Assembly (NCBI RefSeq): GCF_001598795.1
Contig: NZ_BCZP01000009.1
Span: forward strand, 210,001-242,000
Length of the DNA: 32,000 nt
Direction: 5' to 3'
DNA from: Delftia acidovorans NBRC 14950
Lineage (GTDB): Bacteria > Pseudomonadota > Gammaproteobacteria > Burkholderiales > Burkholderiaceae_C
In this document: piece after piece, positions 5,477-32,000 of the stretch
Layout of the letters: every line of letters begins with the position of its first letter
How positions within the stretch are numbered: position 1 is the first letter of the stretch
Notes under the pieces: generated by a model
What the model was told of the DNA's origin: nothing
Database searches by the model: none
Seen by the model: the letters and a program-made list of their open reading frames with translations, nothing else
Translations under genes and position numbers: made by a program

Positions 5477-5884
5477 CTACTTGGGGGCGCCCAGTTGGTA
5501 CTTGGAGCCCTCGCCCTGGCCATCGGTGATGGCGGCGGCCTGGCCGGCGGCCGGGTTCACGCCGCCGGCATCTTCCTTGTTCGTGGCTCCTGCGCCGCTT
5601 GCGGGCTCCGATGCCTTGGCGGGCAGGGGCGCGGCTGGCGGCAGGGGCTCGTGCGGATCCCCCTTGGCATGGGGCATGACCTGCTCGGCCATGATCACGG
5701 GCTGGCCCAGCAGGGGCTTGTCCGGCGGGGGCTGGTTGAAGCGCGGCACTTCTGCCATGGGAAATCCCGCGCGCGTTGACGAGGTCTCGCCCGAGCAGGC
5801 GGCCAGCGTCAGCAACGAGGTTGCGGCGACGCCCAGGGCCAGCCGTCTGGCGAGTGTCGTGGCCTGCACAAATTCATGGGGCAT
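5477..5884 (-). CDS. Putative lipoprotein, Pro/Ala/Gly-rich (135 aa)
   Basis: Internal Met of track ORF 5477..6025. MPHEFVQATTLARRLALGVAATSLLTLAAC|SGE gives a signal peptide with lipobox L-A-A-C. GGAGA SD lies upstream on the minus strand. The mature part is low-complexity and no family is recognised. Confidence 0.7.
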   Translation of the reverse strand: MPHEFVQATTLARRLALGVAATSLLTLAACSGETSSTRAGFPMAEVPRFNQPPPDKPLLGQPVIMAEQVMPHAKGDPHEPLPPAAPLPAKASEPASGAGATNKEDAGGVNPAAGQAAAITDGQGEGSKYQLGAPK

Positions 5885-10986: not shown

Positions 10987-11600
10987 TGCCCGCGACCACG
11001 AACACACCCGCCTCGGACGCCGCCACAGCCTACGAGGCCATCGTGATCGGCGGCTCGGCAGGCGCGCTTGATGCGCTGTCCGTGGTGCTGCCCACGCTGC
11101 CCGCCAGCCTGCGCGCTTCGGTGCTGGTGGTACTGCACCTGCCGCGCGACCGGCGCAGCCTGCTGGGCCAGCTTTTCGGGCCGCGCTGCGCCCTGCCGGT
11201 GCGCGAGGTGCAGGACCAGCAATGGCTGGAGCCGGGCTGCCTGTACTTTGCGCCGGCCGACTACCACCTGCTGGTGGACAGCGGGCCCAGGCTGGCGCTG
11301 TCGCTGGATGCGCCCTGGCATTTTTCGCGGCCCTCGATCGATGTGCTGTTCGAGTCGGCTGCCGACTGCTATGGCGAGCGCCTGCTGGCCGTGCTGCTGT
11401 CCGGCGCCAACGAGGATGGCGCCCAGGGCATGGCCAGCGTGCACGCGGCCGGCGGCCTGGCGGTGGTGCAGTCGCCAGACAGTGCCGCAATGCAGACCAT
11501 GCCGCGGGCGGCCCTGGCCCGCGTGCCACAGGCCCAGGTGCTGGCGCCGCAGGGCATTGCCGCGCTCATCGCATCGCTGCACGGCCAGGGGAGGCTTTGA
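10986..11600 (+). CDS. cheB: CheB-type protein-glutamate methylesterase, catalytic domain only (no receiver)
   Basis: 204 aa. Contains IVIGGSAGALDAL (active-site Ser context), VLHLPRD (His) and RPSIDVLFES (Asp). Translationally coupled to cheR upstream and abuts the next ATG (TGA ATG at 11598-11603). Confidence 0.9.
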   Translation: MPATTNTPASDAATAYEAIVIGGSAGALDALSVVLPTLPASLRASVLVVLHLPRDRRSLLGQLFGPRCALPVREVQDQQWLEPGCLYFAPADYHLLVDSGPRLALSLDAPWHFSRPSIDVLFESAADCYGERLLAVLLSGANEDGAQGMASVHAAGGLAVVQSPDSAAMQTMPRAALARVPQAQVLAPQGIAALIASLHGQGRL

Positions 11601-22701: not shown

Positions 22702-25700
22702 ATGGTCCCTGACACGCGAAAGCCCGTGACGCCCATGTCCCAACCGTCCCCATCGTCTTCACAGTCCCTGTCCCCCGACACCGCGGCCTCCGCCGTGGAC
22801 CAGGCAGTCGCCAGCGGCGGCTCCTACGAAGTGCTGGCCAAGCGCCTTGACGGCCAGGGGCAGGCGCTGGAGACGCTGGCACGCCAGCTCAACGAGGAGC
22901 GGCTGGAGGAATTCGGCCGCAGCCAGATGGAAGTCATCGGGCGCATGCGCGTGCGCACCGAAAACAACTGCCTGGGCCGCGACATCGCCCAGGTCGGCGG
23001 CTACCTGCTGTTTGGCTACAACGTCTTCATGGGTCTGAAGCAGTCCACGCGCGTGGAGGACGTGTTCGTGCTGTACCGCCTGCACGAGGGACAGCAGGGC
23101 TACGAGGTCACGCCGGTCGATCTCAAGGACAGCTTTCTGGGCATACAGAGCTTCGTGCAGGACTTCCAGGAGCTGTACGCCTACTACAAGAACACCCGGC
23201 TGATGCAGCTGGCCGTGCGCGACGGCAAGCTGCTGGCGAGCTTTCAGATTGGCGAGCGCCTGTCCGATGTGCGCGTATTCCGCTGGTCCGTGCCCGTCGA
23301 TGGCCAGCCCATCCGCTACATAGACAACCGGGGCGAGCGCGATATCGAGCTGCCCGCACCGCATGACTTCGAGTGGCAGCGCGCCGGGCGCGAGCAGCTG
23401 GTGCAGGGGCGCCACCCGCACATCAACGTGCTGGACGGGGTCTTCGTCGAGACCCTGGGCGGCACGCTGACCATCAAGGTCGAGAACAACACCAACGACG
23501 GACTGGGCATCTACAGCGAGCCCGTGCAGGAGAAGAACCAGTCGCTGGACGACGCCGTGTTCGAGTACGCGGCCGTGGGCAGCCTGATCCTGCTGAAGAT
23601 CCTGCCCTACCGCGAAGAGCAGTGGCGCTACCTGATCTTCAACACCCTGTCGCGCCAGGTGCTGCGCATGGACGCCATCGGCGCGGCCTGCATCCAGCTG
23701 CCGCAGGACCACGGCATCATCTTCCCCGGCGGCTACTACCTGCAAAGCGGCGAGAACCGCTCGTTCGAGCAGAACATGCAGGGCATGCGCTACCGGCGCA
23801 GCATCCGCTCGCCCAACGGCGAGGATGTGCTCTACGTGTTCTACGAGCCCGAGAGCGGGCGCATGGCGCTGTTCAAGTACAACCTGATCGAGCGCGCCCT
23901 GCAGCCGCCCATCATCGGCCACGGCTATGCGCGCATGGACGACGGGCGCGTCGTCATCTTCGCGGCCGAGAGCAACGAGGCCTCGCGCGTGCACCCCATG
24001 CAGGTCTGGCGCACGCCCTTCGCCTCGGACGACTATGCGGCACGCCAGCCGCAGCGCGACAGCTTCCTGGGCCGCATCGGCAATGCCGAACTGGTCAGCG
24101 GCATCTCCGACCTGTACAGCGTGCGCAAGGAAATCGCGGCCACCGAGGTCTCGCTGCCGCGCTACGAGCGCCTGATCGACGCCGCGCGCCGCCTGTTCGA
24201 GCGCTACCACTGGCTGGGCGCGCCGCAGCTCAAGGGCGTGCACGAGACCCTGCTGGGCATTGTCGCCACGGGTGATGCGGTCATCGACGAGTACGAAAAG
24301 GTCGAGAGCATCCGCAACGCCTCGGCCAAGGCCATGGGCGAGGTTTCCAGCCGCCACGGCCAGTTGCTCAAGACACTGCGGCTGGCCGACTGGAAAAGCA
24401 TTGGCGAGTACGTGGACGCGCTCACCCAGCTGGGCCAGTTGCGCGGCCAGCTCATGGCCACGCGCGACCTGCGCTATGTGGACCAGGCCGCCATCGACAC
24501 CATGGTGCAGGGCGTCAACGAGGCCCAGGCCGAAGTCTCCCAGCGCACGGCCGCCTTCATTGCCACCGACGAGGCCATGCAGCCCTATGCCGATCAGCTG
24601 CAGGCACTGGACCAGGCCGCGCAGGCGGCAGCCACGGTGGCGCAGATCAACGAGCCGCTGGCGCGCATGGCCGACATGGCGGCTGCGCTGGACATGCTGT
24701 CCGAGCTCATGGGCAGCCTGTCCATCGACGACGCCACGCAGCGCACCCAGGTGGTGGATCGCATCTCGGCCGTCTACGCGCGCCTGAACCAGGTGCGTGC
24801 ACGCGCCGAGCAGCGCCGGTCTGGCCTGGGCGGCGCCGAGAACGTGGCCCAGTTCGCCGCCCAGCTGGCGCTGTTCTCGCAAAGCATCGTCAGCGCCCTG
24901 GGCCTGGCGCAGACGCCCGAGAAATGCGACGAGCAGCTGGCGCGCCTGCTGGTGCAGCTGGAGGAAATCGAAAGCCGCTTCGGCGAGCACGAGCAGTTCC
25001 TCGGCGACATCATGGCCAAGCGCGAGGAGGTGCTGGAGAGCTTCGAGGCGCGCCGCCAGTCGCTGCAGGACGAGCGCCAGCGCAAGGCGCAGGGCGTGCT
25101 GGACGCGGCGCTGCGCATCGTGCAGAGCCTGCCCAAGCGCACCGAGAAACTGGCCAGTGCCGACGCGCTGCATGCGTTCTTTGCAGGCGATCCGCTGATC
25201 GGCAAGCTCAAGGAGCTGGCCCAGCGCCTGCGCGAGCAACTGCATGACCCGGTCAAGGCCGACGACATCGACGGCCGCGTCAAGAACCTGCGCGACCAGG
25301 CGTTTCGCGCGCTGCAGGACCGCACCGAGCTGTACGAAGGCGACGGCGCCATCATTCGCCTGGGCCGCCACCGCTTCAGCGTGGGCAACCAGGAGCTGGA
25401 CCTGACCCTGCTGCCGCGCAACGGCGAACTGTTCCTGCATCTGGTCGGCACCGAGTATTTCGAGCCCATGGACAACCCGGAGCTGGCCGCCCTGCAGGCC
25501 TACTGGGATGCCTCCACGCCGGCCGAATCGCCGCAGTTCTACCGGGGCGAATACCTGGCGCTGGAAGTGGTGCTGGCTGCGCGCCAGCGCCGTGACGGCT
25601 GGAGCGAGGCCCGGCTGGCCCAGTTGCTGCCCGACGAGGCGGCGCTGACCCAGGCCATCCGCGAATTCTCCGCGCCGCGCTACCGCGAAGGCTATGAGCG

Positions 25701-28323
25701 CGGCATCCACGACCATGATGCGGCCCGCATCCTGCAGGTGCTGCTGCCCCTGCGCGATGCTGCTGGCGTGCTGCGCTTTGCGCCCGACGCCCGTGCGCTG
25801 GCCCTGCTGTTCTGGAGCGCACAGGCCCAGGTGCAGCAGCCGCAGCTGGCTGCCGCCATGGCGCAGTGGCCGCTGCGCGCCCAGCAGGCCCAGGCCATGC
25901 AGCAGATGTTCGGCAGCGAGGCCGAACAGCTGAGCCTGCGCACCGACATCTCCGAGCGCCTGCGCGCCTATGCCGAAGAACGGGGCCTGCTGCGCGACCT
26001 GCTGCCAGGACAGGCGGCGCCCGCAGACAGCGATATCGACAGCCTGATCCACGGCGCCGCCGACTACCTGCAGGCCGAGCTGGCGCAAAAGGCCGTGCGC
26101 TTTTCCTTCTCCAGCTACAGCCAGTCGGCCATTGCCGCGCTGCAGGCTGCCGTGCAGCAGCAGGCCCAGCCGCTGCAGCGCTGGGAAGAAATGCAGGCCT
26201 ACTGGCAGGGCGAGGACCGGCGCGACAAGGCCGTGGCGCCGCTGGACCAGCGCTGGCGCAGCGCGCTGCACTGGCTGCAGACCGCCTGCCGCGCGCTGGA
26301 CGACGGGCAAGGGCAGGCCTGGCTGGCCTATTGCGGCGAGGCCGCCGCCTGGCTGTGCTGTGCCGGCCAGTTGCCGTGCAAGGTCAGCAGCGTGGACCTG
26401 CGCCACGAAGTGCCGGGCCTGCTGGGCCAGCATCCGCGCATTGCGGACGGCCGCATGTGGCTGCAGATCGACGACCTGGGCCAGCGCGCCGCGCGCCATT
26501 TCCGTACCTTTGTTCCCGAATTCGGCCGCTACCAGGCGCTGCGCCAGCAGCTGCTGCAGGAGTGGCGCTCGCGCGTGCGGGTGGAGGAATTCAAGGCCCG
26601 GCCGCTGTCGTCCTTTGTGCGCAACCGGCTCATCAACGAGATCTACCTGCCCGTGATCGGCGACAACCTGGCCAAGCAGATCGGCGTGGCCGGCGAGAAC
26701 AAGCGCACCGACCAGATGGGCCTGCTGATGATGATCTCGCCGCCCGGCTACGGCAAGACCACGCTGATGGAGTACGTGGCCAACCGGCTGGGCTTGATCT
26801 TCATGAAGATCAACGGCCCGGCGCTGGGCCACTCCGTGCGCTCGCTGGACCCGGCCCAGGCGCCGGACGCCACGGCGGCCAAGGAGCTGGAAAAGCTTAA
26901 CCTGGCGCTGGAGATGGCCAACAACGTGATGCTGTACATCGACGACATACAGCACACGCACCCCGAGTTCCTGCAGAAATTCATCTCGCTGTCGGACGGC
27001 ACGCGCCGCATCGAGGGCGTGTGGAAGGGCCAGACCCGCACCCACGACATGCGCGGCAAGCGCTTTTGCGTGGTCATGTCGGGCAATCCGTACACCGAGT
27101 CGGGGGAGGTCTTCAAGATCCCCGACATGCTGGCCAACCGTGCCGACATCTACAACCTGGGCGATGTGCTGGGCGGCATGCAGGAGGTGTTCAAGCTCAG
27201 CTACATCGAAAACAGCATGACCTCGAACGCCGTGCTGGCGCCGATGGCCACGCGCAGCCTGCAGGACCTGTACCTGCTGCTGGACAAGGCGCAGGGCCGT
27301 GAGGTCTCGGGCAATGCGCTGTCGCACGACTACTCATCGGCCGAGCTGCGCGAGATCGAGGCCGTGCTGGCCCGCATGGTGCAGGTGCGCGAGCTGGTGT
27401 TCAAGGTCAACCAGCAGTACATCCAGAGCGCCGCGCAGGACGACGGCTACCGCACCGAGCCGGCCTTCCGGCTGCAGGGCAGCTACCGCAACATGAACAA
27501 GCTGGCCGAGAAGATCACGCCCGTGATGAACGACCAGGAAATGCAGCAGATGCTGGCCGACCACTACCAGGGCGAAGCGCAGATGCTGACCACGGGCGCC
27601 GAGGAGAACCTGCTCAAGCTCGCCGAGCTGCGCGGGCAGATGAGCGACGAGGACAGCGCCCGCTGGCAGCAGATACGCCAGCAGTTCCTGCGCCGCCAGG
27701 CTGCAGGCGGCGCCAATGCCGACGCCGCCACGCGCGTGACGGCGCAGCTGGTCGACCTGGTCGCCGCTACGCGCGAGGTGGCCCAGTCGGTGTCCCAGTC
27801 CCAGCAGCAGGCGATGCAGGAAGGCGCCGCCGACCAGGCCCACGCATCGGCAGCGGCCGCGCACGCCGCCGCCAGGGACGCTGACCAATCCCAGACGCTA
27901 CAGGCGCTTCAGACTCTGCTGGCGCGGCTGCTGCAAACCCAAAGTGCTGCAGGCGACTCGCTGCACGGCATACGCGAGCTGATGGCGCAAAGGGCGGCCA
28001 GCGAGCCCGTCGGCACCCAGGCCAGCACCCTTTCGGAGGTACAGGCCGCCCAGGAACGTCAGGCCCTGGTCCACATGCTGGGCCAACTGCTGACCCGGTC
28101 GCTGACCCAGTCCCTGGAGCCCGTGGTCACGCACCTGGACCAGGCCCGCCGCCAGCAGCTGGGCCTGCACCGCGTGCTGATGCAGGTGGCCACGCGCATG
28201 CAGGAGCAGATCGACGCCCAGCGCGCGGGCCGTCCCGTGCCGGCTGCGGGCGCCATACGCTCCGAGGAAATCGACAAGGCCTTCGAGCGCATGCAGCGCG
28301 GCGACGTGCCGCCTGCGGCCTAG
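22702..28323 (+). CDS. Giant (1873 aa) uncharacterised protein with a single MoxR/dynein-type AAA+ ATPase module
   Basis: GGAGGG SD (22691-22696) lies 5 nt before the ATG. Walker A is SPPGYGKTT (26737-26763) and Walker B is MLYIDD (26929-26946). A sensor/arginine region follows: VVMSGNPYTESGEVFKIPDMLANRADIY. The remainder is a beta-rich-looking N-terminal about 400 aa plus roughly 1100 aa of helical Ala/Gln/Leu/Arg-rich sequence. No TM or signal peptide is evident. Confidence 0.9.
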   Translation: MVPDTRKPVTPMSQPSPSSSQSLSPDTAASAVDQAVASGGSYEVLAKRLDGQGQALETLARQLNEERLEEFGRSQMEVIGRMRVRTENNCLGRDIAQVGGYLLFGYNVFMGLKQSTRVEDVFVLYRLHEGQQGYEVTPVDLKDSFLGIQSFVQDFQELYAYYKNTRLMQLAVRDGKLLASFQIGERLSDVRVFRWSVPVDGQPIRYIDNRGERDIELPAPHDFEWQRAGREQLVQGRHPHINVLDGVFVETLGGTLTIKVENNTNDGLGIYSEPVQEKNQSLDDAVFEYAAVGSLILLKILPYREEQWRYLIFNTLSRQVLRMDAIGAACIQLPQDHGIIFPGGYYLQSGENRSFEQNMQGMRYRRSIRSPNGEDVLYVFYEPESGRMALFKYNLIERALQPPIIGHGYARMDDGRVVIFAAESNEASRVHPMQVWRTPFASDDYAARQPQRDSFLGRIGNAELVSGISDLYSVRKEIAATEVSLPRYERLIDAARRLFERYHWLGAPQLKGVHETLLGIVATGDAVIDEYEKVESIRNASAKAMGEVSSRHGQLLKTLRLADWKSIGEYVDALTQLGQLRGQLMATRDLRYVDQAAIDTMVQGVNEAQAEVSQRTAAFIATDEAMQPYADQLQALDQAAQAAATVAQINEPLARMADMAAALDMLSELMGSLSIDDATQRTQVVDRISAVYARLNQVRARAEQRRSGLGGAENVAQFAAQLALFSQSIVSALGLAQTPEKCDEQLARLLVQLEEIESRFGEHEQFLGDIMAKREEVLESFEARRQSLQDERQRKAQGVLDAALRIVQSLPKRTEKLASADALHAFFAGDPLIGKLKELAQRLREQLHDPVKADDIDGRVKNLRDQAFRALQDRTELYEGDGAIIRLGRHRFSVGNQELDLTLLPRNGELFLHLVGTEYFEPMDNPELAALQAYWDASTPAESPQFYRGEYLALEVVLAARQRRDGWSEARLAQLLPDEAALTQAIREFSAPRYREGYERGIHDHDAARILQVLLPLRDAAGVLRFAPDARALALLFWSAQAQVQQPQLAAAMAQWPLRAQQAQAMQQMFGSEAEQLSLRTDISERLRAYAEERGLLRDLLPGQAAPADSDIDSLIHGAADYLQAELAQKAVRFSFSSYSQSAIAALQAAVQQQAQPLQRWEEMQAYWQGEDRRDKAVAPLDQRWRSALHWLQTACRALDDGQGQAWLAYCGEAAAWLCCAGQLPCKVSSVDLRHEVPGLLGQHPRIADGRMWLQIDDLGQRAARHFRTFVPEFGRYQALRQQLLQEWRSRVRVEEFKARPLSSFVRNRLINEIYLPVIGDNLAKQIGVAGENKRTDQMGLLMMISPPGYGKTTLMEYVANRLGLIFMKINGPALGHSVRSLDPAQAPDATAAKELEKLNLALEMANNVMLYIDDIQHTHPEFLQKFISLSDGTRRIEGVWKGQTRTHDMRGKRFCVVMSGNPYTESGEVFKIPDMLANRADIYNLGDVLGGMQEVFKLSYIENSMTSNAVLAPMATRSLQDLYLLLDKAQGREVSGNALSHDYSSAELREIEAVLARMVQVRELVFKVNQQYIQSAAQDDGYRTEPAFRLQGSYRNMNKLAEKITPVMNDQEMQQMLADHYQGEAQMLTTGAEENLLKLAELRGQMSDEDSARWQQIRQQFLRRQAAGGANADAATRVTAQLVDLVAATREVAQSVSQSQQQAMQEGAADQAHASAAAAHAAARDADQSQTLQALQTLLARLLQTQSAAGDSLHGIRELMAQRAASEPVGTQASTLSEVQAAQERQALVHMLGQLLTRSLTQSLEPVVTHLDQARRQQLGLHRVLMQVATRMQEQIDAQRAGRPVPAAGAIRSEEIDKAFERMQRGDVPPAA

Positions 28324-28580: not shown

Positions 28581-29225
28581 ATGGAACACAACACCCAGCT
28601 TTCCGTTTCGCGCAGGGACCTGCTGATTGCAGGTGCCTCCACGGCTGCGGCAACGGCCGTGCCTCGATCGGCCGGCGCGCAAGTGCAGCCTCCCTCCATC
28701 CCCGAAGGGGTCCAACTGCCCGTCACCCTGCAGGTCAACGGCAAGGAACACCGCCTGGACCTGGACACCCGCACCACGCTGCTCGACGCCCTGCGCGAGC
28801 ATCTGCACCTGACCGGCACCAAGAAAGGCTGCGACCATGGCCAGTGCGGGGCCTGCACGGTGCTGGTCAATGGCCGGCGCGTGGTGTCCTGCCTGAGCCT
28901 GGCCGTGATGAACCAGGGCGCCGCCGTGACCACCATCGAAGGTCTTGGCACACCGCAATCCCCGCACGCCATGCAGGCCGCCTTCGTGCGGCACGACGGT
29001 TTCCAGTGCGGCTACTGCACGCCGGGGCAGATCTGTTCTGCCGTGGGCGTGCTCGATGAAATCAAACGCGGCATGCCCAGCCATGCCAGCGAAGACATCG
29101 TGGCCCAGCCCCTGGTGTCGGCCCATGAACTGCGTGAACGCATGAGCGGCAACCTGTGCCGCTGCGGGGCGTATTCCAACATCGTCGATGCCATCACCGA
29201 AGTGGCGGGGGAGGGGCGCACATGA
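28581..29225 (+). CDS. paoA: Periplasmic aldehyde oxidoreductase, 2Fe-2S subunit with Tat signal (PaoA/YagT-like)
   Basis: Twin-arginine motif [18 protein letters not shown]. Two 2Fe-2S cluster motifs: [12 protein letters not shown] and CGYCTPG...CRCGAY. Internal Met of track ORF 28389..29225. Confidence 0.92.
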
Positions 29226-30172
29226 TTGCCTTCACCTACGAACGCGCCCAATCCCCCGCGCAGGCCGCCGCCGCCGTGGCGGCCCGGCCGGGCGCCCGCT
29301 TCATCGCCGGGGGCACGAATCTGCTGGACCTGATGAAGCTGCAGATAGAAACCCCCGTGCATCTGGTCGATGTGAACGGCACCGGCATGGACACCGTGGA
29401 GCCCACCGCGCAGGGCGGCTTGCGCATAGGCGCGCTGGTGCGCAACAGCGACCTGGCCGCCCATGCGCGCGTGCGGCGCGACTACGGCGTGCTGACCCGC
29501 GCCCTGGTGGCCGGCGCCTCGGGCCAGTTGCGCAACATGGCGACCACAGGCGGCAATCTGCTGCAGCGCACCCGCTGCCCGTATTTCTACGACACCAATA
29601 TGCCGTGCAACAAGCGCGTGCCGGGCAGCGGCTGTTCGGCCATTGCCGGCGTGAGCCGCCAGCATGCGGTGATCGGCGGCAGCGAGGCCTGCATTGCCAC
29701 CCATCCCAGTGACATGGCCGTGGCGCTGCGCGCGCTGGACGCCACGGTGGAAACCATCCAGGCCGACGGCAAGGCCCGCGTCATCCCCATTGCCGACTTC
29801 CACCGGCTGCCCGGCAGTACGCCGCATGTAGAGACGGCCTTGCAGGCCGGCGAACTGATCACCTCCGTCACCCTGCCGCCCCCGCCGGGCGGCACGCACA
29901 TCTATCACAAGGTGCGTGACCGCGCTTCCTATGCGTTTGCGCTGGTGTCGGTGGCCGCCATCGTGCAGCGCGACGGCAGCGGGCGCGTGGCCCTGGGCGG
30001 CGTGGCGCACAAGCCCTGGCGTCTGGATGCTGCCGAAGCGTTGATGCCGCAGGGCGCCAGGGCCGTTGCCGACCGCCTGCTGGCGGGCGCCCGGCCCACG
30101 CACGACAACGCCTTCAAACTCCCGCTGGCCGAACGCACGCTCGCCGCCGTGCTGGACCAGGCCAGGAGCTAG
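29222..30172 (+). CDS. paoB: Aldehyde oxidoreductase FAD-binding subunit (PaoB/YagS-like)
   Basis: ATGA start/stop overlap with paoA (29222-29225). [19 protein letters not shown]...[14 protein letters not shown] is the CO-dehydrogenase-flavoprotein-type FAD domain. A Cys-rich stretch, [27 protein letters not shown], is consistent with the PaoB-type 4Fe-4S insert. Confidence 0.92.
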
Positions 30173-30438
30173 AGCGTGTTGTGCACTTTTAAGTGCCCGC
30201 GAAAGCCGGGAAAGGGGCCCGGAACGAGGCGTAGCACGCGCCGCGGTTGCCACACCGCAAGCGGGCTGCAACGAAGGGCCGGGCCCCTTTCCCGGCTTTC
30301 CCGAAGGGTTGGCTCTGTGCGCAGGCGCTCGCGGCGTTGCAGCGCTTGCCAAGGCATGGGCCTTGGCTGCGCACTGCGCCTTGCGATCACCAGCGCGCAG
30401 AGCCAACGCGGGTACTTAAAAGTGCACAACACGCTCTA
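30170..30438. mobile_element. MITE-like nested-palindrome element (about 265 bp) flanked by TA/TA
   Basis: Terminal inverted repeats at 30170-30201 and 30407-30438: TAGAGCGTGTTGTGCACTTTTAAGT is perfect over 25 nt and 31/32 overall. Internal perfect 22-bp IR: GAAAGCCGGGAAAGGGGCCCGG (30201-30222) / its complement at 30279-30300. A second internal IR is GTTGGCTCTGTGCGC (30308-30322) / GCGCGCAGAGCCAAC (30393-30407), 14/15. There is no credible ORF inside. Confidence 0.6.
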
Positions 30439-30443
30439 AAGCC

Positions 30444-32000
30444 ATGAAATTCGACACCCCCGCAACGGTCAACCCCATTGACCAGCTCAAGACCATCGGC
30501 CAGCCGATGAACCGCATCGACGGCCTGCTCAAGACCACCGGCACGGCGCCGTATGCCTATGAACGGCATGACGTGGTCCAGCACCCGGCCTATGGCTATG
30601 TGGTGGGCTCGGCCATCGCCAAGGGCCGCATACGCAGCATCGGGCTGGCGCAGGCAAGCCGCGCGCCCGGCGTGCTCGCCATCGTCACCGCGCAGACCGC
30701 TGGGAAGCTGGGCCAGGGCAAGATGAATACCGCGCCGCTGCTGGCAGGCCCCCAGGTGGCCCACTACCACCAGGCCGTGGCCCTGGTGGTGGCGGAGACC
30801 TTCGAGCAGGCGCGCGCTGCCGCGCAACTGGTCCGTGTGGACTACGAGCCCGTGGCTGGCGCCTATGACCTGGCCGAGGCCAAGGACTCCGCCGTGCCAC
30901 CCGACAGCATCAATGGCGATGCGCCGGATACGGCCATTGGCGATTTCGAGGGCGCCTTCGCTTCGGCCCCCATGAAGGTGGACGCCACATACACCACGCC
31001 AGACCAGTCGCACGCCATGATGGAGCCCCATGCCACGCTGGCCGCATGGAAGGGCGACCAGCTCACGGTATGGACCTCGAACCAGATGATTGCCTGGGGC
31101 CAGGGCGAGCTGGCAAAGACGCTGGGCATTCCCAAGGACAAAGTGCGCCTGGTCTCGCCATTCATTGGCGGCGGTTTTGGCGGCAAGCTGTTCCTGCGGG
31201 CCGACGCACTGCTGGCCGCGCTGGGCGCCCGCGCGGCAGGCCGGCCCGTCAAGGTCGCACTGCAGCGCCCGCTGATGGCCAACAACACCACGCACCGCCC
31301 GGCCACCATCCAGCGTGTGCGCATCGCGGCAGGGCAGGACGGAAAAATCACCGCCATCGGCCACGAAAGCTGGTCGGGCGACCAGCCAGGAGGATCGGCG
31401 GACGGTGCCGTGGACCAGACCCGTCGCATGTATGCCGGCACCCATCGCATGACCGCCACGCGCCTGGCCGTGCTGGACCTGCCCGAGGCCAATGCCATGC
31501 GCGCCCCCGGCGAGGCCACGGGGCACATGGCCCTGGAGGTTGCCATGGACGAGCTGGCGGAAAAGCTCGGCATCGATCCCGTGGAGCTGCGCATCCGCAA
31601 CGACACCCAGGTGGTGCCGGACAGCGGCAAGAAGCCGCAACCCGAGGCGAAGGAGGGCACCCCTGCCCAGGAGCACAAGCCGTTTTCCCGCCGTGAGTTC
31701 GTGCAGTGCCTGCGCACGGGCGCCGAGCGCTTCGGATGGAGCCAGCGCAATCCCCAGCCGGCCCAACGACGCGAAGGGCGCTGGCTGATCGGCCTGGGCA
31801 TGGCCGGCGCCTACCGAGGCGCCCCTGTCATGAAGTCCGCCGCCCGCGTGCGTCTGGACAGGCAGGGCATGCTCACCGTGGAAACCGACATGACCGACAT
31901 CGGCACGGGCAGCTACACCATCATTGCCCAGACGGCGGCCGAGATGCTGGGCCTGCCGCTGCAGCAGGTGCGCGTGCGGCTGGGCGATTCCGGCTTTCCC
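30444..32000 (+). CDS. paoC: Aldehyde oxidoreductase molybdopterin-binding large subunit (PaoC/YagR-like), 3' end outside the window
   Basis: This ORF is not in the track because it is open at the window edge. My own translation from ATG 30444 gives MKFDTPATVNPIDQLKTIGQPMNRIDGLLKTTGTAPYAYE...YGYVVGSAIAKGRI...HYHQAVALVVAETFEQARAAA. That is near-identical in idiom to E. coli PaoC as remembered (MKFDKPAGENPIDQLKVVGRPHDRIDGPLKTTGTARYAYE...). The frame stays open for 519 codons to 32000. Confidence 0.92.
   Translation, partial: MKFDTPATVNPIDQLKTIGQPMNRIDGLLKTTGTAPYAYERHDVVQHPAYGYVVGSAIAKGRIRSIGLAQASRAPGVLAIVTAQTAGKLGQGKMNTAPLLAGPQVAHYHQAVALVVAETFEQARAAAQLVRVDYEPVAGAYDLAEAKDSAVPPDSINGDAPDTAIGDFEGAFASAPMKVDATYTTPDQSHAMMEPHATLAAWKGDQLTVWTSNQMIAWGQGELAKTLGIPKDKVRLVSPFIGGGFGGKLFLRADALLAALGARAAGRPVKVALQRPLMANNTTHRPATIQRVRIAAGQDGKITAIGHESWSGDQPGGSADGAVDQTRRMYAGTHRMTATRLAVLDLPEANAMRAPGEATGHMALEVAMDELAEKLGIDPVELRIRNDTQVVPDSGKKPQPEAKEGTPAQEHKPFSRREFVQCLRTGAERFGWSQRNPQPAQRREGRWLIGLGMAGAYRGAPVMKSAARVRLDRQGMLTVETDMTDIGTGSYTIIAQTAAEMLGLPLQQVRVRLGDSGFP

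Follow-up and report, generated by a model that had tools for sequence, protein, structure and literature searches.

The nearest known elements, ERIC/IRU and the Correia elements (NEMIS, or CREE, of Neisseria), are TA-flanked, co-transcribed, hairpin-forming repeats that affect mRNA processing (PMC2229807). The element described here is a MITE (miniature inverted-repeat transposable element) of 269 nt. It lies between paoB and paoC in a 32,000-nt stretch of Delftia acidovorans NBRC 14950 (contig NZ_BCZP01000009.1, positions 210,001 to 242,000; hereafter 'the window', whose numbering is used unless another contig is named). It is an insertion, with a 2-bp TA duplication, into the paoB-paoC stop/start junction. 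The best explanation of the observations as a whole, and a probable one, is that a MITE with ends of the IS5 family was mobilised in trans, inserted at this junction, and is tolerated in operon junctions through its fold.

The described repeats resemble the MITE in different respects. ERIC/IRU elements, known from enterobacteria and Yersinia, are likewise imperfect palindromes with TA termini, present at low to moderate copy number in transcribed intergenic regions or operon junctions, and ERIC is co-transcribed, folds as RNA and is conserved at orthologous sites. However, ERIC measures 127 bp, with repeats of ~7 bp, a single hairpin and no known partner insertion sequence (IS), whereas the MITE measures 269 bp, with 31-bp repeats that match an IS and a predicted four-way junction. 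For ERIC an orientation-dependent effect of RNase E has also been shown. Correia elements share the TA duplication, repeats of similar length (~24-26 bp) and a position next to or between genes, and the hairpins in their transcripts are RNase III substrates. They are 100-155 bp long, unrelated in sequence and present in hundreds of copies, and they carry IHF sites and promoters. In contrast, the MITE has 1-4 detectable copies per genome, and a scan of positions 30100-30500 for sigma-70 promoters and intrinsic terminators found none. RUP of Streptococcus pneumoniae was, like the MITE, assigned to an IS by similarity of terminal repeats and inserts at TA, but it is 107 bp long, its partner is IS630-Spn1 of the IS630 family, and it targets other IS elements. 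Finally, IS427-like members of the IS5 family (an 862-bp IS of Burkholderia glumae and ISAzo23-like transposases) share the 20-nt terminus TAGAGCGTGTTATGCACTTT, the TA flanks and the 2-bp duplication. They differ in that the MITE has no transposase and a ~205-nt interior unrelated to that of the IS, and in their hosts, which are Comamonadaceae for the MITE and Burkholderiaceae for the IS.

Insertion at the paoB-paoC junction and dispersed copies

The genes on either side of the element are of the PaoABC/YagTSR type, as the original prediction had proposed from the letters: the gene of a 2Fe-2S subunit (28581-29225) is followed by that of the FAD subunit and, beyond the element, by that of the molybdopterin subunit (30444 onward). 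The closest relatives of this PaoB are found in Delftia. The comparison with related junctions that had been recommended at the outset covers 17 orthologous sites from Delftia sp. Cs1-4, several D. acidovorans-like assemblies, metagenome contigs and Acidovorax (PaoB identity 95-98% for the Delftia-type and metagenome sequences and 90% for Acidovorax). The element is absent from all 17 and is therefore an insertion. In the empty junctions the TGA of paoB is followed by 4 nt (CGCC, CGCT or CGCG) and then by the ATG of paoC, so that AGGAGC-TGA-CGCN-ATG corresponds to AGGAGC[TA-GAGCG...CGCTC-TA]AAGCC-ATG in the window. Removal of the element and one TA leaves a 16-nt AGGAGC...ATG segment, equal in length to the empty sites. 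This length fits a 2-bp duplication rather than the possibility, raised earlier as a caution, that TA is simply part of the inverted repeat; one of the two terminal TA copies in the 269 nt is the duplicated target. Nor is the element a single-copy spacer shared by all orthologous junctions, since every one of those compared is empty and many copies exist elsewhere.

The insertion leaves PaoB intact, with TAG (TA plus the first G of the element) in place of TGA, and paoC retains a full-length open frame of 750 aa, the same as in relatives. AGGAG, the putative ribosome-binding site of paoC, lies 8 nt from the paoC ATG in the empty sites and 275 nt from it in the window, and no Shine-Dalgarno motif is present in the final 25 nt of the element. 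The paoB-paoC insertion is limited to one PaoB allele lineage within Delftia. Two Logan short-read contigs (L002, ending at 10990, and L003, ending at 5483) carry the same PaoB allele and stop 41 and 18 nt, respectively, into the left repeat. Assemblies thus break at the element, and short-read assemblies under-count it.

Within the window the 23-nt terminus occurs twice, compared with no occurrence in 100 shuffled sequences. Its exact form in the window copy gave no match in 185,579 representative genomes; a 19-mer of the terminus led to 3 metagenome loci and a degenerate terminus pattern to 39 genome loci. An nhmmer search with the window element then gave about 30 full or partial copies. 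The suggested check for further copies has thereby yielded about 28 independent sites at unrelated loci in genomes and metagenomes. The hosts are Acidovorax, Delftia, Comamonas, Giesbergeria, Simplicispira and Verminephrobacter, all of them Comamonadaceae. Copy length is nearly constant at 269 nt, the exceptions being four internally deleted copies and short remnants; two copies carry 1-nt indels. Most copies have a pyrimidine before the left TA and a purine after the right one (Y-TA...TA-R). Between 1 and 4 copies are detectable per genome (one in a complete 5.2-Mb Acidovorax chromosome), and these counts are lower bounds because detection needs one terminus that matches the pattern. Copies from Delftia and Comamonas at different loci are 94-97% identical, which indicates recent mobility, and Acidovorax copies are 76-85% identical to those.

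The element is thus small and non-coding, with terminal repeats, a TA duplication, dispersed copies and presence/absence polymorphism. The original prediction was sound on this point: it had proposed a mobile, non-autonomous insertion, non-coding, with inverted repeats at its ends and a duplicated TA. Literature searches for the terminus sequence and for MITEs of Delftia or Acidovorax found no description of the family, and the MITE is a new, undescribed Comamonadaceae family of a known kind.

Some further matches touch on the distribution of the family. Three pattern matches, in Anaerocaecibacter, Caulobacterales and Salinicoccus, show no similarity beyond the terminus and are attributed to chance. 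The sole host exception is a 331-nt contig labelled Streptomyces griseus NRRL WC-3645 (L030 1-331), in which 108 nt of the MITE are followed by a Comamonadaceae-like gene start; this contig is probably a contaminant. The source genome of the window also contains a remnant of ~68 nt about 9.5 kb past the element (L001 20414-20481, corresponding to about window position 39635 and hence outside the window). It consists of the left terminus fused directly to the final ~55 nt, and its neighbours are porin-like and RskA-like genes that converge on it. The source genome has therefore received at least two insertions.

IS5-family ends

In a short-query BLAST search of plasmids, the terminus of the MITE matched the ends of genes annotated as 'IS5 family transposase'. 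An 862-bp IS on plasmid bglu_3p of Burkholderia glumae BGR1 has perfect 20-bp inverted repeats, TAGAGCGTGTTATGCACTTT. The family-consensus terminus is identical to both ends of this IS at 20 of 20 positions, and the window copy has one difference, in both arms. Over the first 18 nt of the left repeat the mismatch is a single G at element position 12. Position 30181 of the window is changed from A to G relative to both the family consensus and the B. glumae IS terminus, and its partner at 30427 from T to C, so that the predicted transposase-binding ends also appear to change in concert. The B. glumae IS is flanked as cTA...TAc. Its ends recur, preceded by cTA or tTA, in related copies from Mycetohabitans, Ralstonia, Burkholderia, Cupriavidus and an IMG/VR viral contig. 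Its transposase has 265 aa, with DUF4096 and DDE_Tnp_1 domains, and matches NCBIfam transpos_IS5_3 at 196 bits (cutoff 110).

Work with trap plasmids in Paracoccus describes elements of the IS5/IS427 group that are 830-865 bp long, whose repeats measure 13-21 bp and whose direct repeats are of 2 bp (PMC3281130, Table 2). The size of the B. glumae IS (862 bp), its 20-bp repeats and its 2-bp flank fit a partner like those of the IS427 group (PMC3281130), with one open reading frame (ORF) rather than two frameshifted ones. The identification of the element as an IS5-type MITE inserted at TA is made with high confidence. A DDE transposase of the partner IS group would move the MITE in trans, binding the 20-31-bp ends.

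Fold and conservation

The repeats proposed originally are all present, and two of them are longer than first described. The 32-nt termini (30170-30201 and 30407-30438) are 97% complementary, and TA is the first and last dinucleotide of the element. The perfect 22-mer repeat lies inside a 25-nt repeat of 96% complementarity (30198-30222 and 30279-30303), with 56 nt between the arms. The 15-mer repeat extends to 25 nt at 84% (30308-30332 and 30383-30407), with 50 nt between the arms, and encloses the expected apical hairpin. Folded as RNA, the 269 nt reach -205.4 kcal/mol, compared with -121.8 +/- 5 for shuffled sequences (z = -16.7, 0 of 200 as low), and folding as DNA gives z = -14.9. When 40 nt of mRNA flank are included at either end, the element continues to fold autonomously in silico. 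In the predicted fold the outer stem stacks on hairpin 1, so that more than 50 pairs follow one another without a break on the 5' side. The features are listed in Table 1.

Table 1. Features of the MITE and of the surrounding paoB-paoC junction, in window coordinates
Feature	Positions	Strand	Description and basis
paoB-like FAD-binding subunit gene	29222..30172	+	316-aa protein, length unaltered by the insertion
AGGAG Shine-Dalgarno-like motif	30164..30168	+	within the 3' end of paoB; sequence and empty-site alignment
Whole MITE with both TA copies	30170..30438	+	269 nt = 265-nt core plus TA at each end
Left TA (target-site duplication)	30170..30171	.	sequence; with G30172 gives the present paoB stop TAG (30170-30172)
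Left terminal inverted repeat	30172..30201	+	inverted-repeat search and IS terminus comparison
Hairpin 1	30201..30300	+	22-25-bp lower stem and irregular upper stem; inverted repeat, fold, covariation
Mini-hairpin CC-GAA-GG at the four-way junction	30301..30307	+	stem invariant, loop variable among copies
Hairpin 2	30308..30407	+	freely covarying lower stem, sequence-invariant internal loops, apex GCCAAGGC-ATGG-GCCTTGGC (30348-30367)
Right terminal inverted repeat	30407..30436	-	inverted-repeat search and terminus count
Right TA (second copy of the target duplication)	30437..30438	.	sequence; family flanks Y-TA...TA-R
paoC start codon	30444..30446	+	5 nt past the element; same start called in orthologs

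The consensus structure obtained by aligning 22 full-length copies has 104 pairs; in it a 31-bp outer stem, hairpin 1, an invariant CCC-NNN-GGG mini-hairpin and hairpin 2 form a closed four-way junction. Folding and covariation thus both recover the outer stem with two internal hairpins that had been predicted. The consensus pairs are maintained in 97.5% of alignment cells, and 39 of the 104 show compensatory double changes. These include 14 of the 16 pairs of helix 6, the lower stem of hairpin 2, and 14 pairs in helices 2-4 of hairpin 1, and the terminal repeats, too, are conserved with paired changes over the 22 copies. In 500 column shuffles the observed values were never reached, and sliding the partners by 1-3 columns reduces pairing to 33-43%. 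The tips of the hairpins are variable, and 21 of the 63 unpaired columns are invariant. A search of Rfam 15 gave only weak matches to hairpins of the miRNA-precursor type, far below gathering scores.

Two mirror-image ORFs of 87 aa, both beginning MLCTFK and ending LKVHNTL, are present as noted originally (30176-30439 on the forward strand and 30169-30432 on the reverse strand). A coding role for them was considered and rejected: the variable columns show no 3-periodicity (52/47/51), and the ORFs are mirror images made by the palindrome.

Five groups of copies at orthologous sites in different species allowed 10 pairwise comparisons with the flanking genes, for which the most variable codon position was taken as the third. 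The orthologous copies are 88-100% identical (92-100% in 8 of the 10 pairs), compared with 67-88% at flanking third codon positions. Those of Simplicispira and Giesbergeria are identical at 269 of 269 positions, with flanks at 91-93% (p about 1e-4 to 1e-9 under flank-like divergence). These comparisons argue strongly that the MITE family is under purifying selection.

Four independent deletion derivatives were observed (L012 5415-5637, L032 4427-4653, L034 51-306 and L017 6230-6418). All four have lost hairpin 2 wholly or partly and kept the outer stem and hairpin 1, and three keep the lower stem of hairpin 2. This pattern fits loss of a palindrome tip and suggests that the apex of hairpin 2 is dispensable for persistence.

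A standalone hairpin of ~100 nt was also found just downstream of ruvA on a Comamonas odontotermitis plasmid (NZ_CP083452.1; L063 1492-1600). Its apex resembles that of hairpin 2 of the MITE (CGTTGCAGCGCTTGCCAA...TTGGCTGCACGCTGCGCC); the outer arms differ and there are no IS-type ends. Hairpin 2 may therefore be a module that also exists outside the MITE.

Insertion sites and competing explanations

The genes that flank the copies are functionally unrelated. They include a DegT-type aminotransferase and a sugar transferase, an ABC ATPase and CobO, GspF and a 5'-nucleotidase-like gene, PstC and PstA, as well as a gene upstream of fliA, TctC, LysR, LigB, an M20 hydrolase and a GT39 glycosyltransferase. 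An element that marks a regulon is ruled out on this ground. The position of the copies relative to genes is much less varied. At 4-6 of the ~28 independent sites the stop codon of the upstream gene is formed by the target TA and the element's first G, or is no further than 1-2 nt away, and at these sites, which include the one in the window, the next gene starts 1-5 nt past the other end. A further ~7 copies lie within 15 nt of a start codon, which brings the share of insertions this close to a start to about half. The null model, which draws on YTAR sites in non-coding parts of the same loci (231 kb) and on a crude home-made gene finder, leads one to expect ~1% of sites at stop/start junctions and ~7.5% within 15 nt of a start. 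The enrichment is approximate given these gene calls, with binomial p about 3e-8 for start proximity and 6e-5 to 3e-3 for strict junctions. Orientation with respect to the gene downstream runs ~10 to 3 against that of the window copy (p = 0.09). Alternatively, the bias towards start sites may reflect targeting by the transposase and not selective retention.

The genes that start 1-5 nt from a copy are intact, and their first and second codon positions are 92-100% identical between species. Being intact and under purifying selection, they indicate that the element does not generally abolish downstream expression. A copy in Acidovorax sp. LjRoot129 (L044 2570-2838) lies 1 nt after the TGA of the upstream gene and 1 nt upstream of the fliA start, and splits a GGAG motif from the fliA ATG.

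A possible route to such tolerance follows from the geometry of the fold. The MITE would be transcribed within the paoABC mRNA, and confidence that it is co-transcribed and folds into a closed structure is moderate. Closure of the outer stem at the very ends of the element would place the paoB stop codon and AGGAG physically beside the paoC AUG, and translation of paoC could then persist through coupling across the stem base. It can be suggested, tentatively, that coupling or initiation survives because the outer stem closes at the element ends. A closed stem that keeps the stop codon and ribosome-binding site near the AUG would make junction insertions tolerable, and the fold would then be kept by selection.

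Comparable arrangements have been described in other systems. Hairpins in phage T4 genes 38 and 25 reportedly bring a Shine-Dalgarno sequence and start codon together, and in cauliflower mosaic virus ribosomes are said to shunt across the base of a stem. Both share the proposed geometry, in which the base of a stable stem has a stop codon or ribosome-binding site on its upstream side and an AUG on its downstream side, but these structures are much smaller or eukaryotic, and for the MITE the geometry is a proposal. To our knowledge, cross-stem translation has never been shown for a 269-nt bacterial mobile element. A bolder version, which must be considered unlikely, holds that the MITE is a mobile, selectively maintained RNA structure that acts as an insert between cistrons compatible with translation. 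With a stop codon recreated at one base of the closed four-way junction and the next start codon 1-5 nt past the other, terminating ribosomes or an upstream Shine-Dalgarno sequence could act over the 269 nt, in what would be a bacterial equivalent of ribosome shunting. This would explain the bias towards start codons and junctions, the compensatory evolution and the slow divergence together. In a variant of the same idea, the conserved internal loops would mark an undescribed large structured RNA with an activity of its own, carried between IS5-type ends.

Several observations weigh against the account of an IS5-ended MITE whose fold is tolerated at operon junctions. The pre-insertion allele that it implies, TAA-AGCC, did not turn up among the 17 empty sites, each of which has TGA-CGCN and lacks a TA, so that the account has to suppose two substitutions. 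The Comamonadaceae sequences examined yielded neither an IS with matching ends nor a related transposase, the pattern used for the genome scan being blind to IS ends that read CACTTTC. The matching partner is known only from Burkholderiaceae. In a local tblastn search of all 447 kb of fetched loci the IS transposase matched only Burkholderiaceae loci, in plasmids its matches were mostly from Ralstonia, Burkholderia and others, and none of its 120 best protein homologues came from Comamonadaceae. Of the 8 split sites that could be reconstructed, only 3-4 have, by manual reading of the flanks, a clear Shine-Dalgarno motif across the element from the start. Outside two fixed G.T positions the alignment contains 39 G.T and 33 A.C mismatches with no strand bias, and constraint at the level of RNA is accordingly not distinguished from constraint at the level of DNA. 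Finally, invariant internal loops are not needed by a simple model in which the structure brings the ends together.

A further reading is that the family, in addition to being a MITE, is a mobile structured RNA or DNA module with a selected function, for instance in RNase III or RNase E processing or mRNA stabilisation, by which it would set how strongly the upstream gene is expressed relative to the downstream one, or as a DNA four-way junction or protein-binding site. The divergence of orthologous copies far below that of synonymous sites, with one pair identical throughout, the invariance of the internal loops where the hairpin tips vary, the 39 covarying pairs, the long run of stacked pairs on the 5' side and the occurrence of a hairpin-2-like motif by itself in a Comamonas replicon would all be consistent with such a function. 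There are precedents in the Correia elements with RNase III and in ERIC with RNase E (PMC2229807). However, the flanking genes are unrelated and both orientations occur, four independent losses of the hairpin 2 apex have left the insertion in place, and the searches described above gave neither an Rfam match nor a promoter- or terminator-like site. A selected function is a possibility that falls well short of being favoured.

Comparably doubtful is the simpler proposal that the window copy is recent and polar junk, with paoC, and with it the PaoABC enzyme, reduced or lost and no special mechanism involved. PaoABC-type enzymes are generally dispensable in the laboratory, and confinement of the insertion to one PaoB allele lineage, the 275-nt separation of AGGAG from the ATG and the lack of a Shine-Dalgarno motif in the last 25 nt of the element all point this way. 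Against it, older insertions of the family lie 1-5 nt upstream of intact genes under purifying selection in several species, and paoC itself is still full length at 750 aa.

A derivation from, or mobilisation by, an IS630/Tc1-mariner element, as first predicted, is very improbable. That group typically shows a TA duplication and short terminal repeats, and RUP with its partner IS630-Spn1 provides a precedent (PMC2229807), but the one IS that was found to share the ends is a member of the IS5 family. The search for an IS630-like partner that the original prediction called for found none in plasmid, viral or genome pattern searches. The TA duplication expected of IS630/Tc1-mariner MITEs is present but non-specific: 2-bp repeats also occur in the IS427 group, so the duplication is compatible with IS5 ancestry and an IS630/mariner assignment is not needed. 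The corrected superfamily illustrates that a TA duplication alone is not diagnostic of IS630/mariner, and as a MITE the element is ordinary. The least probable of the alternatives, a REP/BIME/REPIN palindrome spread by a RAYT (IS200/IS605-like) or a native structural spacer of paoABC, can draw on the highly palindromic sequence, the intercistronic position and compensatory stem evolution as in REPINs, but the absence from 17 orthologous junctions effectively refutes a spacer, while ~1-4 detectable copies per genome instead of hundreds, 31-nt terminal repeats, IS-type (DDE) ends and a TA duplication speak against a REPIN, which would consist of 20-40-nt palindromic units in tens to hundreds of copies with no target duplication, although no search for a RAYT gene was made.

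The IS5-ended MITE is more interesting than a routine member of its class in its size and four-way junction, in the strong purifying selection on it, and in its stop-regenerating insertions at operon junctions. It represents a 269-nt structure with unusually strong covariation and purifying selection, yet belongs to no described RNA family. The copies at pstC-pstA, gspF, a cobalamin operon, fliA and paoBC also form a natural experiment on how a large insert can separate a start from the stop codon or ribosome-binding site before it and leave the downstream gene alive. If it is true that the closed fold makes the insertion harmless or useful, this would be a testable case of long-range translational coupling and would show in general how mobile elements can persist in compact GC-rich genomes.

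Directly upstream of paoABC, and unrelated to the MITE, the window contains an ORF of 1873 aa (22702-28323) with DUF3686, DUF7902 and a weak AAA match, which is also conserved at several Delftia loci besides this one. Upstream of it lie two unannotated ORFs and, at a greater distance, a PspA-like gene.

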